Assembly: GCA_964447495.1 (NCBI GenBank)
Contig: CAYUTF010000050.1
Coordinates: 1 to 24,395 of the forward strand
Reading direction: 5' to 3'
Source of the DNA: an uncultured archaeon
GTDB lineage: Archaea; Asgardarchaeota; Lokiarchaeia; Sigyniarchaeales; SOKP01
Length of the DNA: 24,395 bases
Part shown: piece after piece, positions 6,275 to 14,572 of the stretch
Numbering within the stretch: position 1 is the stretch's first letter
Layout of the letters: each line of letters starts with the position of its first letter
Translations under genes and position numbers: made by a program
The notes under the pieces: model-generated
What the model saw: only the letters and a program-made list of their open reading frames with translations
Databases searched by the model: none
Told to the model about the DNA's origin: nothing

Positions 6275-8322
6275 TTAATCGATTTTTATATCCATTTTCT
6301 TTCTTTCAGCGAGTAAATCATCCACTACCGATGGATCGGCTAAAGTGGTGACATTCCCGATTTCCGTTCCTGAAGCAATCGCTTTCAAGATTCTTCGCAT
6401 TATTTTTCCACTTCGAGTTTTGGGAAGTGAATCAGCAAATTGAACGACATCTGGCTGAAAAACAGGGCCAATTTCTTTCCGAACATGCATTTTAATTTCA
6501 TTTTCCAACTCTTTGGATTTCTCTACCCCAGCCATCGTTGTTACAAATGCCCATATTGCTTGACCCTTAATCTTGTGAGGGAATGGCGCTACTGCAGCTT
6601 CTGCAACTTTTGGATGGGACACAATTGCACTTTCGACTTCCATTGTACCGATTCGATGTCCAGAAACTTTTATAACATCATCTAAACGTCCTAAGATCCA
6701 GTAGTAGCCATCATCATCGCGTCGAGCACCATCTCCGGTGTATTCATCCCATAATCGAATTGATTTGAAATGGTGTAATAACCCGGATAACGCTCTAGAT
6801 ATGTTGACTTAAATCGCTCTGTATCTCTCCAAACATCTCGAAGCATTCCTGGCCAAGGTTGAGCCATACAAAAATAACCTCCTTCGTCAGCTTCGGTGAC
6901 TTCCTCTCCTTCAAGGTCAAAAATGATTGGCTTGATACCTAAGAAAGGTAAACAACATGAACCTGGCTTGGTTGGAGTTGCCGATGCGATGGGAGTCATA
7001 ATAAAGCCTCCTGTTTCCGTTTGCCAATATGTATCAACAATTGGACACTTGCTCTTCCCTATTACTCGATGGTACCACGTCCATGCTTCGGGATTTATTG
7101 GTTCACCAACAGTTCCAAGCACTTTAAGCGAACTAATATCATGCTTATTCACAGGTGCTTCTCCATATCGCATAAGTGCTCTAATTGCTGTTGGGGCTGT
7201 GTAGAAATGCGTGACTTTATGACGTTCAACAATGTCCCAAAACCTGTATCCGTCGATTGAGAAAGGAAATTCTCGATCGTCTACGTCAGGGTAAGTTGGA
7301 ACGCTTTCAAACATCAAGGATGTTGCTCCATTAGCTAAAGGTCCATATACAATGTAGGAATGTCCTGTGATCCAGCCAATATCTGCAGTACAATACCAGA
7401 CATCATCTTCCTGATAATTAAACACGACACGATGAGTATAAGAAGTATATAAGATATATCCTGCAGTGGTATGATTAACACCCTTAGGCTTACCTGTTGT
7501 TCCACTAGTGTATAGGATAAAAAGCGTGTCTTCAGAGTCCATATGTTCCGGTTCGCATTGTTCACTCACTCCGTCAATGAAATCATGATACCAGATATCT
7601 TTTTTAGTGTGCGGGACTTCATTTCCAGTTCGCTTAACCACGATCACATGTTCGATGGTTGGCACATCATCAATCATTTCAGCAACGTCAGCCATTTTAG
7701 GGTAAAATTTTCCTGCTCGCACCGTCTCATCGCTGGTAAAGAGCAATCGAGAGTCAGAGTCTTCAATCCTGTCTTTTACTGCTTCTTTTGAGAATCCGCC
7801 AAACACGATTGAATGAATTACGCCAATTCGAGCACACGCAAGCATAATTATGGCGAGTTCGGGAATCATAGGCAGCCAAATAGTCACTCTGTCTCCTTTT
7901 TTCAAGCCAAGTTTTCTCATTCCATTCGCTACTTTCGAGACTTCTTTTAACAGTTCGCTGTAAGTAAATTTTTTCGCATGGCCTGGTTCATCAGCTTCCC
8001 AGATAATCGCAATCTTATCACCTTTTCCAGCTTTTACATGGCGATCGAGACAATTATATGCAACGTTTAATTTCCCTCCAACAAACCACTTTCCAGGAAA
8101 TAAATCGGTCGATTCCCATACTTTATCATAAGGTTTAAACCAATCGAGCGATTGAGCTTGTTCACCCCAGAAACCTTCCATGTCGTCAATTGATTTTTTG
8201 TAGAGTGTGTGATATTCTTTAAAAGTCATCCCTGATTTCACAAATTCGGTGTTAAATTTTACTGGGTCGAATTTACGATTTTCAGTGAGGATGCTTTCCA
8301 TTTTATTATCTTCTTTCGGCAT
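6275..8322 (-). CDS. acs: Acetyl-CoA synthetase (AMP-forming), interrupted by two putative BHB introns; exons 8322..7281, 7247..6775, 6742..6275; 660 aa after splicing
   Basis: Motifs [67 protein letters not shown] and [11 protein letters not shown]. ORFs 6691..8322 and 6275..6643 join into one frame after removing 6743..6774. 2048 - 65 = 1983 nt = 660 aa plus stop. Confidence 0.95.
6743..6774 (-). other. Putative 32-nt BHB (tRNA-endonuclease-type) mRNA intron, frame-disrupting
   Basis: Intron ACCAUUUCAAAUCAAUUCGAUUAUGGGAUGAA. Outer helix UCCGG-GU / AC-A-CCGGA, central helix UAUU/GAUG (2 Watson-Crick + 2 G-U), bulges ACA and AAU, inner stems CCAU/AUGG and AAUC/GAUU. Cutting after bulge nt 2 gives PGYYYTGDG. 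Confidence 0.85.
7248..7280 (-). other. Putative 33-nt BHB mRNA intron, in frame
   Basis: Intron ACGAUCGAGAAUUUCCUUUCUCAAUCGACGGAU. Outer helix CCUG/CAGG, central helix ACGU/ACGG (3 Watson-Crick + A.G), bulges AGA and AUA, inner stem CGAUCGAGAA/UUCUCAAUCG (9 of 10 paired). Cutting after bulge nt 2 gives YPDVDRFW. Confidence 0.8.
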
Positions 8323-12598: not shown

Positions 12599-13303
12599 AT
12601 GTCAGAGTCAATATTACTCAAAAAAATTGATACATGGGACAAGGAAATAATTATAAAATGGAATGGATTTGGAGGGAAATCTCTCACTTTTCTATTAAGA
12701 ATCATCTCTTTTCTTGGTAGAGAGACAATATGGCTTATTTTAATCGTATTTTATCTATTAATATGGTATGATCCCATCATATTTTCTTATATAGGCTCTA
12801 CATTCTTAGCGGGAATATTATTAATTGTACCTATTAAGAAGATAATCCATCGAGCTCGCCCTTTTGAAAGTTTAAATCAAATAGAAGTTCTGGAACGGCG
12901 TCCAAGTTCTAGAAGCTTTCCCTCATGGCATGTGTATAATATTGTTTCACAGGGATTAATATTTATCTATATATTCAATAATTTAGTTATTATAATACTT
13001 GCTATAGTGTGTACTTTCATTGTAGGAGTCTCGAGAATTCAATTAGGTGTGCATTACCCTAGTGATGTTATTGCGGGGGGTATTTTTGGTATTCTTGGAT
13101 TTTTTTTATCTATACTCCTTATTGCTCCTCTATCGTATACTATTGTAAAATTTTTTGAAAGTTTTATTGAAATACCTATTCAATATCAGAGATTGAATAG
13201 TTTGTTGTTCGAAAATATGTGGTATAACTTACTATGCGCGGGTTTAGTGCTATTAATATTTATCTTAGCTAACTATAAATGGATCAGGGATTATTTTCAT
13301 TAA
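12599..13303 (+). CDS. PAP2-family membrane phosphatase
   Basis: KKIIHRARP, SFPSWH (variant of PSGH) and SRIQLGVHYPSDV motifs; several TM helices. Confidence 0.88.
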   Translation: MSESILLKKIDTWDKEIIIKWNGFGGKSLTFLLRIISFLGRETIWLILIVFYLLIWYDPIIFSYIGSTFLAGILLIVPIKKIIHRARPFESLNQIEVLERRPSSRSFPSWHVYNIVSQGLIFIYIFNNLVIIILAIVCTFIVGVSRIQLGVHYPSDVIAGGIFGILGFFLSILLIAPLSYTIVKFFESFIEIPIQYQRLNSLLFENMWYNLLCAGLVLLIFILANYKWIRDYFH

Positions 13304-13321: not shown

Positions 13322-14572
13322 TCAAAGATTGAATTTTCGTTTCTTATCAAATAACTGCTTTAACTCGTTTAAAACTTGAGACCTTGAATCTGCAGCACTT
13401 GATTGACTTCCAGCTTGATTTGGGTTATGAATGCTTATAGGAATACCACTTTGCGCTATTTCGAATGCTCCACTTTCAATAGCTCTCAATCGACTATCTA
13501 AATCATTTAATTGTTTTGAGATACTTTCTGATAAACGAATAACTGCATTCATTGTTTCTTCAAGTGTTTTACCAAGACCTTCTACCTTTTTCAAAGTGGG
13601 ATTAGTAAGAGAATGTGCTGATCTCATAACATCTTTAATATATTTAGAAAATTCGGGTTCATTTGAGATTAAGGAATAGATTGAAGTAAGATATGCTTCA
13701 AAATCGTACCCATACTGCGTTAATAGTTGATTTAGATTATCTTTTAATAATTCAACACTTAATACAATCTCAGGATTATAGCGTAAGTCAGGGTCGTGTT
13801 TATGGATATATACCATAATGAAGGGATTCTCTTCGAGAGTTTTTAAAATCTTCAGTATTTCCTCAAAATACTCAAATGATTCAGCAAAGCGTTCTGAATC
13901 TTGAATATCAATTACATAAATAAGCAAGTCTATTTCGAGAAAATACTGTTCGGGATGACTTAAGTATTTATTACGATATTCTTTTTGACCCCCCATATCC
14001 CATATAAATAAGTCTAATTCAGACCCTTCCATTTGAATATTTCTTCTATCAACTCCCTTAGTAGGAGTTAAAGATACTAGATCACTAATTCCCAATTTAC
14101 CACCAAATTTATTTAAGATTGCTGTTTTGCCGGCATTATCTAAACCAATAATAATAATTTTTTGTCTTTCTTTTTTGAAAACATCTTTATCCTCATTGAT
14201 ATTCATAATAATAGAGCTTATGGTGATTACTTTCTGAAGATTTTTTTCAAGAGAAGGATTTTTTGTCTTTAATTCTTCTAATTTATTGAGTAACTCTTCC
14301 TGAATTTCAGCAGACTTAATAGGGTCCTTAGTCGATTCTGATTTGTTAATATTTTCGAAAGGATCTTCCTTATCAAGCTTTGAAGCATCCTCAATGGTAG
14401 AGATATCTAAGACTTCTCTTAATACCTTTGCTTCGCTTTTATCTAAAAATTTATAGGAATAAATTGGTAGTTTCTTAACATCTTCGAGTGTTTTTAGTTT
14501 ACTCACTTTTGCAACCTTCTCATCCAAGAATTTTGCAAAAATCTTAATTACATTTGAAATATCTGTCGACAT
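13322..14572 (-). CDS. Arf/Rag-like small GTPase with N-terminal helical extension and C-terminal coiled coil
   Basis: G1 GLDNAGKT, G2 TPTKG, G3 WDMGGQ, G4 HKHD, G5 TSIY. Confidence 0.9.
   Translation of the reverse strand: MSTDISNVIKIFAKFLDEKVAKVSKLKTLEDVKKLPIYSYKFLDKSEAKVLREVLDISTIEDASKLDKEDPFENINKSESTKDPIKSAEIQEELLNKLEELKTKNPSLEKNLQKVITISSIIMNINEDKDVFKKERQKIIIIGLDNAGKTAILNKFGGKLGISDLVSLTPTKGVDRRNIQMEGSELDLFIWDMGGQKEYRNKYLSHPEQYFLEIDLLIYVIDIQDSERFAESFEYFEEILKILKTLEENPFIMVYIHKHDPDLRYNPEIVLSVELLKDNLNQLLTQYGYDFEAYLTSIYSLISNEPEFSKYIKDVMRSAHSLTNPTLKKVEGLGKTLEETMNAVIRLSESISKQLNDLDSRLRAIESGAFEIAQSGIPISIHNPNQAGSQSSAADSRSQVLNELKQLFDKKRKFNL

Follow-up and report, generated by a model that had tools for sequence, protein, structure and literature searches.

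The window analysed here, a 24,395-nt stretch of DNA, carries on its minus strand the acetyl-CoA synthetase gene (acs, nt 6275-8322) of a Loki-type Asgard archaeon, broken by two short inserts. Exon 1 (nt 7281-8322, 347 codons) codes for the ACAS_N domain (PF16177) and the beginning of the AMP-binding domain (PF00501, profile positions 6-242 of 384) and is followed by a 33-nt insert, here termed intron 1 (nt 7248-7280), which is in frame and stop-free. Exon 2 (nt 6775-7247) is separated by the 32-nt, frameshifting intron 2 (nt 6743-6774) from exon 3 (nt 6275-6742), which encodes the C-terminal domain (PF13193), ends with the stop codon at nt 6275-6277 and is in frame with exon 2 solely after removal of intron 2. 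The unspliced ORF (nt 6691-8322) stops after 543 aa as a result of this frameshift, and a single ORF coding for a 660-aa Acs is obtained once both inserts (33 + 32 nt) are taken out. Removal of intron 1 joins PTYPDVD to RFWDIV in a product as long as the orthologues, and removal of intron 2 likewise gives a product of orthologue length. Contigs of acs from three metatranscriptome runs, where the acs share was small (0.06-0.13 of sampled words) and no joints were reported, matched nt 6309-6515, 6471-6621, 7064-7230 and 8189-8322, none bridging nt 6743-6774 or nt 7248-7280.

Both inserts lie within a tRNA-type bulge-helix-bulge motif (BHB, hBHBh') on the minus strand, in which the four exon bases 5' of the 5' bulge pair with the four intron bases 5' of the 3' bulge. 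The motif of intron 1 (nt 7243-7290) consists of an outer, exon-exon helix of 4 bp (nt 7287-7290 with 7243-7246), a central helix (nt 7283-7286 with 7250-7253, ACGU/ACGG) with three of four pairs and an A.G mismatch, i.e., a relaxed form of the BHB, the two bulges (5', nt 7282-7280; 3', nt 7249-7247) and an inner, intronic helix of 4 bp (nt 7279-7276 with 7257-7254) that goes on past a C.A mismatch. In the motif of intron 2 (nt 6740-6782) the central helix (nt 6780-6777 with 6748-6745, UAUU/GAUG) is paired at all four positions, with bulges at nt 6776-6774 (5') and 6744-6742 (3'), and the flanking helices comprise 2 bp outside (nt 6781-6782 with 6741-6740) and 4 bp inside (nt 6773-6770 with 6752-6749). 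Cleavage of a BHB is said, after Marck and Grosjean in 2003, to fall between the second and the third bulge base; the cuts predicted in this way coincide exactly, for both introns, with the borders given by intronless orthologues. A BHB of the quality of intron 1 was reached by 6.5e-5, and one of the quality of intron 2 by 1.1e-4, of 400,000 random positions in the genome. Free-energy folding did not single out the BHB (z-scores -1.35 and -1.97), the minimum-energy folds taking other registers. The terminal signature described in the original prediction was found by direct reading: intron 1 starts with A-CGAU and its stem closes with AUCG, intron 2 has A-CCAU and AUGG, the 5' bulges are of the A-N-A type (A-G-A and A-C-A, respectively), a G stands right before each of the A-starting 3' bulges (A-U-A and A-A-U), and the loops are unlike each other. 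The G-C to C-G difference between the two stems, there regarded as covariation, has to be withdrawn as such because the positions compared are not homologous.

Real covariation is seen between orthologous introns of other genomes. Nine of 82 distinct Promethearchaeota acs genes hold 21 BHB-type inserts of 30-60 nt at eight sites, up to six in one gene; the other 73, three of which (L015, L030, L105) end short of the intron-bearing region, are without any insert of at least 9 nt when compared with three intronless reference genes. All 21 inserts show a BHB at their borders or within the alignment ambiguity of these borders, and in the acs multiple alignment the motif lay at shift 0 for 13 of 15 inserts. 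The most widespread acs intron, at site 1270, is available in seven distinct sequences and exhibits compensatory changes: 84% of the cells are paired, against 26-49% with slid partners, both sides are altered in six of nine inner-helix pairs, and the covariation score of 0.434 (at most 0.165 when slid) was reached by none of 500 shuffles. In an independent assembly (G018, locus L019) a homologous intron of 32 nt occupies the intron 2 site as well, and here the fourth inner pair, U-A in our genome, is A-U, a single double change. Intron 1 occurs in this genome alone among the 82 genes, with no homologue to compare for compensatory changes.

Introns of the same kind were detected in other genes as well. 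A third one in this genome, of the sort that had been expected to pose as frameshifts, is 31 nt long and frameshifting (contig C22, nt 2930-2960; central helix 4/4, inner helix 6, outer helix 3) and interrupts an ABC ATPase gene directly 3' of the Walker B motif, the upstream piece covering positions 1-136 of 137 of PF00005. It is found in six orthologues of the genus and missing from 18, one more locus ending before the site. Comparison with relatives, whose orthologue matches covered about 15.5% of the bases of the genome before the last batch was added, revealed further such introns in one relative, in the genes for an E2 ubiquitin-conjugating enzyme and a thiolase. The two acs inserts behave as members of a class of mini-introns, of which 31 distinct sequences were found, spread over 14 sites of four genes. 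With alignment-defined borders, the BHB criterion holds for 28 of the 31, the other three failing at the inner helix, versus 0.62% of 400,000 random positions. The A-N-A bulge generalises too, with A as the first base of the bulge at 13 of 14 sites and as the first base of the intron at 12 of the 14.

The genome-wide scan for BHB descriptors that had been proposed as a check did not separate introns from decoys. Requiring a BHB and the restoration of at least 50 open codons on each side, for insert lengths of 20-100 nt, it returned 40,355 'broken if unspliced' matches versus 39,921-40,393 for slid decoys, and no surplus appeared under stricter filters; the BHB motif alone is therefore no marker of introns, and the scan was rejected as a census method, its signal being swamped by junctions of neighbouring genes. 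A search for the best BHB in wide windows around indels was also abandoned, decoys scoring as high as real sites, and alignment-defined borders were consequently used instead. At the sequence level the introns of different sites have a common shape and not a common sequence. When all acs introns were searched against the genome (blastn-short), only the two acs introns themselves were retrieved at E < 1e-4; the longest common words between intron sites were not above shuffles (5.41 vs 5.68), and the one 11-nt word in common was matched by 130 of 1000 shuffles. A MAFFT alignment across intron sites proved meaningless, and structure was scored by position. ARAGORN reported 56 tRNAs and 15 intron calls, several of them implausible (670-807 nt), with a recognisable BHB in just two, tRNA-Thr-CGU (3/4 central-helix pairs) and tRNA-Pro-CGG (3/4, with a middle-pair mismatch); in this weak comparison, neither had any sequence likeness to the acs introns. 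Of the two explanations offered for the resemblance of the acs introns, the constraints of one endonuclease fit these data, and a common origin is left unsupported by a cross-site similarity not above shuffles. No Rfam family was found at gathering scores in the window. Self-splicing group I or group II introns were discarded, the catalytic core needing hundreds of bases and the inserts having 32-33 nt, as were mobile introns driven by homing endonucleases, both acs inserts being too short for any ORF, just as had been noted at the outset.

The presence of the introns is patchy among related genomes. In one relative (G045, locus L206) the ABC ATPase gene has an identity of 93% with intronless genes (L213/L214) and of about 70% with the intron-bearing clade, and its intron is identical to that of our genome at 29 of 31 positions. 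The gene has 21 private differences over 830 nt, and eight of them are found no more than 30 nt from the junction. None of the eight alters the protein (V-L-F-L-D-E-P-T-T); six agree with one or more alleles of the intron-bearing clade, and one agrees with no allele there. Clustering of private differences at intron sites was seen in acs for L019 (29 versus 9.96 expected, P = 1.2e-7) and for L011/L012 (9 versus about 1.1, P about 1e-6); the acs of our genome, whose sister gene is too diverged for this comparison, gave 13 versus 16 expected. Such clusters of exon differences next to introns suggest that recombination has a part in their spread: introns are probably gained and lost between close relatives, at least partly via homologous recombination carrying short exon flanks. 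Flank tracts resembling co-conversion were seen here despite no endonuclease being encoded by the introns.

Two EndA genes (PF01974) are present in the genome. One is closest to the alpha chain of A. pernix (3p1z_B), with K-P-R at the K44/R46 loop and, in the alignment, the Tyr/His/Lys positions kept; the other has Ser in place of the His of 1a79. According to the parts of the literature dealing with these points, the K44/R46 loop confers broad specificity (PMC3241643) and Asgard archaea have an (alpha-beta)2 EndA with such a loop (PMC5829648). The architecture of the endonuclease, whose determination had been proposed as a check, is of the relaxed-specificity (alpha-beta)2 type. The RtcB gene is intact, and by sequence the host is equipped with an RNA ligase and with an EndA whose predicted activity extends beyond tRNA substrates.

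We consider it very likely (probability about 0.85) that both acs inserts are archaeal BHB introns, cut by the (alpha-beta)2 EndA, with the exons joined by RtcB. In the acs pre-mRNA each insert would fold so that four upstream exon bases pair with four bases near the 3' end of the intron, forming a central helix; a bulge of three bases would lie at each end of it, the two on opposite strands, with an exon-exon helix beyond the one and the hairpin of the intron beyond the other. The tRNA-splicing endonuclease of the host, through its broad-specificity loop, would cut once per bulge, and RtcB would ligate the exons; that both steps take place in the cell, and through these enzymes, is what we infer. 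The normal 660-aa Acs would be made from the spliced mRNA only, since retention of intron 2 would yield a protein truncated before the C-terminal domain and retention of intron 1 would add 11 residues. The acs introns would then belong to a structural class of mini-introns of 28-60 nt, distributed over acs, ABC ATPase, E2 and thiolase genes in this Lokiarchaeial genus and probably held together by the shape requirements of the enzyme and not by common sequence.

Ordinary mutation might also be invoked, intron 2 being a frameshift in a decaying acs or an assembly error and intron 1 a harmless 11-residue insertion. MAG assemblies do contain errors, and intron 1 is both in frame and unique to this genome; however, the exons flanking intron 2 are intact and conserved (tblastn 100% and 98%), the very same site holds a homologous insert of 32 nt in the independent G018 assembly, inserts of other genomes show compensatory changes, and BHBs at the borders are not a feature of random inserts. 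For intron 2 this reading is largely refuted, and overall we regard it as very improbable. Intron 1 taken by itself could still be a translated 11-residue insert, given its open frame, its uniqueness and the A.G mismatch in its central helix. The least credible account is that ribosomes hop the inserts in an RNA that is never spliced, as in the translational bypassing of T4 gene 60 and of the yeast mitochondrial 'byps'. The inserts are short hairpins of suitable size, and at intron 2 the word TACACC is repeated 35 nt downstream, offering possible take-off and landing sites, but with a 35-nt hop there the protein would be one residue short of every orthologue, whereas orthologue length is obtained with the 32-nt BHB cut; moreover, border-matching words of at least 3 nt occur at just two of the 14 sites, neither of them an acs intron of this window, and bypassing has no need of exon-intron pairing.

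Removal from the RNA by another hairpin-recognising nuclease, with sealing by RtcB in the manner of IRE1-type or animal 'SOS splicing', is somewhat less improbable, albeit unlikely. Every insert is a hairpin, RtcB is present, and a RTCB-dependent removal of base-paired mRNA insertions is described for animals in the relevant part of PMC12779559. Nevertheless, a system recognising hairpins only would leave unexplained why 28 of 31 introns have a 4-bp helix between exon and intron and two 3-nt bulges a fixed distance apart, and the host has a broad-specificity EndA.

Watanabe and co-workers reportedly described, in 2002, a BHB intron in the cbf5 pre-mRNA of Crenarchaeota. This intron underwent lineage-specific loss and resides in hosts with an (alpha-beta)2 EndA, as outlined by Yokobori et al. 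2009 (PMC2738675), and was indicated, in the section of PMC7714728 concerned, as the only protein-coding case as of 2020. The acs introns resemble it in being short BHB introns within a protein-coding gene of an (alpha-beta)2 EndA host, the cbf5 intron being removed by the tRNA-splicing enzymes; however, cbf5 offers one intron at one site of one gene in thermophilic Crenarchaeota, whereas here we find up to six introns per gene, eight acs sites and four genes or more, in Asgard hosts and with turnover among near relatives. Non-canonical tRNA introns of Asgard archaea and Thermoproteales, for which the pertinent passages of PMC11291895 and bioRxiv 10.64898/2026.10.13.758758 report many independent gains and no general arrival route, have the same motif and presumed enzymes but are hosted by tRNA genes instead of protein genes; protein-coding hosts go unmentioned in the text consulted, 'mRNA' occurring 0 times in the bioRxiv source and the six of 19 'intron' passages seen of PMC11291895 all concerning tRNA. 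In Haloferax volcanii, the HVO_1309 mRNA has a BHB intron in its 5' UTR whose processing affects expression (PMC7714728, in the same section); this is an EndA substrate in an mRNA, as we propose here, but a single case in an untranslated leader, while ours lie within codons. XBP1/HAC1 and animal 'SOS splicing', as presented in the corresponding part of PMC12779559, share the spliceosome-independent cutting and sealing of a small structured mRNA insert, with ligation by the RtcB family and a frame restored or changed; being eukaryotic, with another nuclease and recognition rule, they provide an analogy of logic and not intron homology. No mention of BHB introns in protein-coding genes of Asgard archaea came up in the literature searched, which lay mostly outside subscription journals and included preprints without their supplements.

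A wider scenario can be put forward only tentatively, and we hold it to be rather doubtful: Loki-type Asgards might host mobile mini-introns of tRNA type in protein genes, spreading at the DNA level with about 30 bp of exon flank, piling up in few genes (up to six in acs) and making active enzymes, notably the acetyl-CoA enzymes acs and thiolase, dependent on EndA/RtcB, which would amount to a splicing-gated layer of expression with an XBP1/HAC1-like logic in the closest prokaryotic relatives of eukaryotes. One may ask whether the tRNA machinery, by splicing mRNAs, has a regulatory role in the lineage that gave rise to eukaryotes. Protein-coding BHB introns, thought to be near-unique to crenarchaeal cbf5, may be commoner, with a dynamic multi-site and multi-gene population in Asgards, and near-identical genes with and without introns, whose flank tracts suggest recombination, offer a system for the study of gain and loss. 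In gene calling, intron-bearing genes are mistaken for frameshifted or split genes or for genes with odd inserts, which has consequences for the metabolic reconstruction of these MAGs; the acs of this genome, for instance, would be read as a truncated protein of 543 aa.

The acs gene, coding for an acetyl-CoA synthetase on the minus strand (6275–8322, from the ORF listing, the reading of the strand and the joined product), appears in the unspliced sequence as a 543-aa ORF (6691–8322) and a separate 122-aa ORF in a different frame (6275–6643; table-11 ORF listing). Two inserts, both on the minus strand, interrupt it: intron 1 (7248–7280, 33 nt), adding 11 extra residues within the conserved YPD..RFW region, and intron 2 (6743–6774, 32 nt), which throws the C-terminal domain behind it out of frame. 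Taking out both leads to one 660-aa protein, joined at PTYPDVD|RFWDIV and at a second 13-residue joint. Pfam assigns ACAS_N and AMP-binding to exon 1, AMP-binding_C to exon 3.

Both inserts display the tRNA-type bulge-helix-bulge (BHB) architecture, in which four exon bases just upstream of the 5' cut form a helix with the four intron bases just upstream of the 3' bulge. The central helix is ACGU/ACGG in intron 1 (three pairs plus A.G) and UAUU/GAUG in intron 2 (four pairs). In intron 1 the bulges read A-G|A (5') and A-U|A (3'), with the intron hairpin CGAU/AUCG directly inside; in intron 2 they read A-C|A and A-A|U, with the hairpin CCAU/AUGG. The outer exon-exon helix counts 4 bp in intron 1 (CCUG/CAGG) and 2 bp in intron 2, followed by further pairing past a bulged A. 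Cleavage after the second of the three bases in each bulge, the rule reportedly set out by Marck and Grosjean in 2003, excises exactly 33 and 32 nt. Since this layout could be read on the strand, the original prediction described the two inserts correctly in detail. Minimum-energy folding alone did not pick out the BHB in the two acs intron regions (z −1.35 and −1.97).

The acs gene was searched in 41 genomes: its own (G000), 24 congeners and 16 further members of the order. Species representatives, titled Promethearchaeota or Promethearchaeia MAGs apart from a few with other Asgard names, were scanned as well. As many as 82 distinct acs genes were found at 60% or more identity, 73 of them without any insert of 9 nt or more with reference to three intronless genes (3 of the 73 stop short of the relevant region). 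The other nine hold 21 inserts of 30–60 nt at eight sites (CDS positions 940, 1036, 1042, 1084, 1194, 1270, 1431 and 1515): two in G000, six in the genome G023, four each in G018 and G041, and one in each of five further genes, always at site 1270. A homologous 32-nt intron occupies the site of intron 2 (1515) in G018 too; the site of intron 1 (1042) is occupied in G000 alone among the 82 genes. All 21 inserts show the BHB layout at, or within the alignment ambiguity of, their borders, and for 13 of the 15 in the multiple alignment the cuts fall exactly on them. The eight sites are confined to CDS 940–1515 (about 6743–7380 in the window), a central stretch of 575 nt in a gene of 1980 nt, with none in the first 940 nt or the last 465 nt. 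One orthologue, L083, gave two tblastn pieces of Acs across 3520 nt, compared with the 2 kb of the gene, an excess that a partial tandem duplication or a sizeable insertion could explain.

When all introns were pooled (31 distinct sequences, 14 sites), 28 had a central helix of at least three of four pairs, with the middle two paired, and an inner helix of at least three, compared with 0.62% of 400,000 length-matched random positions; the quality of introns 1 and 2 was matched by fractions of 6.5e-5 and 1.1e-4 of random positions. The first bulge base is A at 13/14 sites, the first intron base at 12/14, and the 3' bulge begins with A at 13/14. At site 1270, where seven distinct copies align gaplessly over 60 columns, 84% of cells are paired, against 26–49% with slid partners, and both sides have changed in six of nine inner-helix pairs. 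The covariation score (0.434) was at most 0.165 after sliding, and none of 500 shuffles was as high. Variation in this alignment is highest in the intron stem and almost absent from the exon flanks, the opposite of what would be expected for a translated insert.

Decay of acs, or an assembly error, is contradicted by the independent assemblies, the conserved exons and this covariation. Ribosomes might also bypass the inserts without RNA splicing; matched border words, found at only 2 of the 14 sites, and the wrong product length at intron 2 make this hardly credible. Removal by a nuclease other than the tRNA-splicing endonuclease EndA is very unlikely. Taken alone, intron 1 is the weakest of the cases: it keeps the frame, occurs in G000 only and contains a mismatch. 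The two acs inserts and their BHB layout are confirmed as an observation, and we infer that they are spliced.

A genome-wide BHB descriptor scan, one of the checks named in the original prediction, failed as an intron finder; therefore, stop-to-stop ORFs of G000 were compared, in both directions, with samples of G041 (400 kb), G023 (1.18 Mb) and the genome G017 (272 kb). In successive batches, 145, 185, 353 and 217 G000 ORFs could be paired with an orthologue (not de-duplicated); up to the final batch, the pairs spanned 15.5% of the bases of G000. The expectation that the genome holds more such introns was borne out by a third, frameshifting one of 31 nt (C22:2930–2960), directly 3' of the Walker B motif of an ABC ATPase, with 4/4 central pairs, inner and outer helices scoring 6 and 3, and cuts exactly on the borders. 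The upstream piece covers positions 1–136 of 137 of PF00005, removal regains LFLDEPTT|GVD, and the region folds better than 200/200 shuffles (z −3.19). At the same site the intron is present in 6 genus orthologues and absent in 18; one locus ends before it.

Three BHB mini-introns (31, 30 and 30 nt) fall within about 170 codons of a G023 gene for an E2 ubiquitin-conjugating enzyme, a eukaryote-like Asgard protein (UQ_con; contig C3, locus L138, about 12625–12940, minus strand); its G000 orthologue (C67:11130–11696) is uninterrupted. A G023 thiolase gene (contig C1, about 47196–47270; g23C1b 7196–7270; G000 orthologue C108:428–1687) has introns of 28 and 31 nt flanking a 16-nt micro-exon, so that parts of both BHB motifs must share the same tiny exon. 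Two more G023 in-frame inserts, one within a histone-fold gene and the other in the counterpart of a G000 C42 ORF, are doubtful, and no intron outside acs was seen in the G041 and G017 samples. Such sparse finds in the sampled ORFs of the four genomes indicate that BHB mini-introns are rare per genome and clumped in few genes. A 33-nt in-frame stretch at 14266–14299 (gene 13322–14572, minus strand), missing from the G041 orthologue (50% identity), had a best BHB score of 12, no higher than decoys (up to 12), and is probably an ordinary indel.

An acs tree was built from 77 rows, omitting five short genes. Explaining intron presence in eight of these rows takes 7 changes, a number as low in 121/500 shuffles; their sisters (L034, L038/L042, L104) are intronless. 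A FastTree tree of the intron-bearing middle segment groups G023 with G041, L104 and L106 (support 98), whereas the flanks group it with G000 and L034, a conflict that gives only a hint of movement. A sharper case is the ABC gene L206 of the genome G045, with 93% identity to the intronless L213/L214 and about 70% to the intron-bearing clade, and an intron sharing 29/31 identities with the G000 copy. Between −467 and +362 this gene has 21 private differences, eight of them within 30 nt of the junction; all eight are protein-silent, and six match at least one allele of the intron-bearing clade. Private differences also cluster in acs, at the four intron sites of the G018 gene L019 (29 versus 9.96 expected, P 1.2e-7) and at site 1270 of the sisters L011 and L012 (9 versus about 1.1); no flank clustering was found in more diverged acs pairs, G000 versus L034 among them. 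Our reading of these clusters is that homologous recombination, co-converting short flanks, brought the introns in or removed them. Selection for exon bases that can form the BHB could strengthen the signal near the cut; it is insufficient, because protein-silent substitutions 12–30 nt away remain unaccounted for.

Introns at the same site are homologous across genomes (site 1270, site 1515 and the ABC intron, with 26–29 of 31 identities). Between the 14 sites of the pooled set no sequence likeness beyond chance was found, nor were further copies of the two acs introns in G000, and among the 31 introns the C(G/C)AU...AU(C/G)G resemblance is confined to introns 1 and 2. Of the two origins proposed for this pair, the constraints of one endonuclease fit and a common origin is unsupported. 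Overall, the sequences support BHB mini-introns under shared constraints, with more of them in the genome.

As for the subunit architecture of EndA, also named for checking, two PF01974 genes were found in G000, one alpha-like and one beta-like. The 201-aa product is closest to 3p1z_B, the alpha chain of the A. pernix heterotetramer (E 8e-36), with the Tyr, His and Lys positions retained and an ungapped alignment across the K44/R46 loop (K-P-R in both), a loop to which a passage of PMC3241643 ascribes a broad substrate range. The 205-aa product has Ser where 1a79 has His, as would be expected of a structural beta subunit. The pair agrees with the (alpha-beta)2 EndA with a broad-specificity loop that PMC5829648 reports for Asgard archaea. 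The RNA ligase RtcB is intact in G000.

A BHB intron in a protein gene is already known from cbf5 (noted in PMC2738675), the only such case as of 2020 according to a passage of PMC7714728. The literature searched gave no report of BHB introns in Asgard protein-coding genes; the passages available from both Asgard intron papers (PMC11291895; bioRxiv 10.64898/2026.10.13.758758) concern tRNA only. The novel points are that a gene can hold several introns, that several genes are affected, that presence/absence changes rapidly among congeners, and that there are flank tracts. As a separate observation, ARAGORN placed 16 same-strand tRNA genes in a 13-kb stretch of G000 (C80:10–13035), a cluster unusually dense for an archaeon, which may represent a mobile element or result from mis-binning of the contig.
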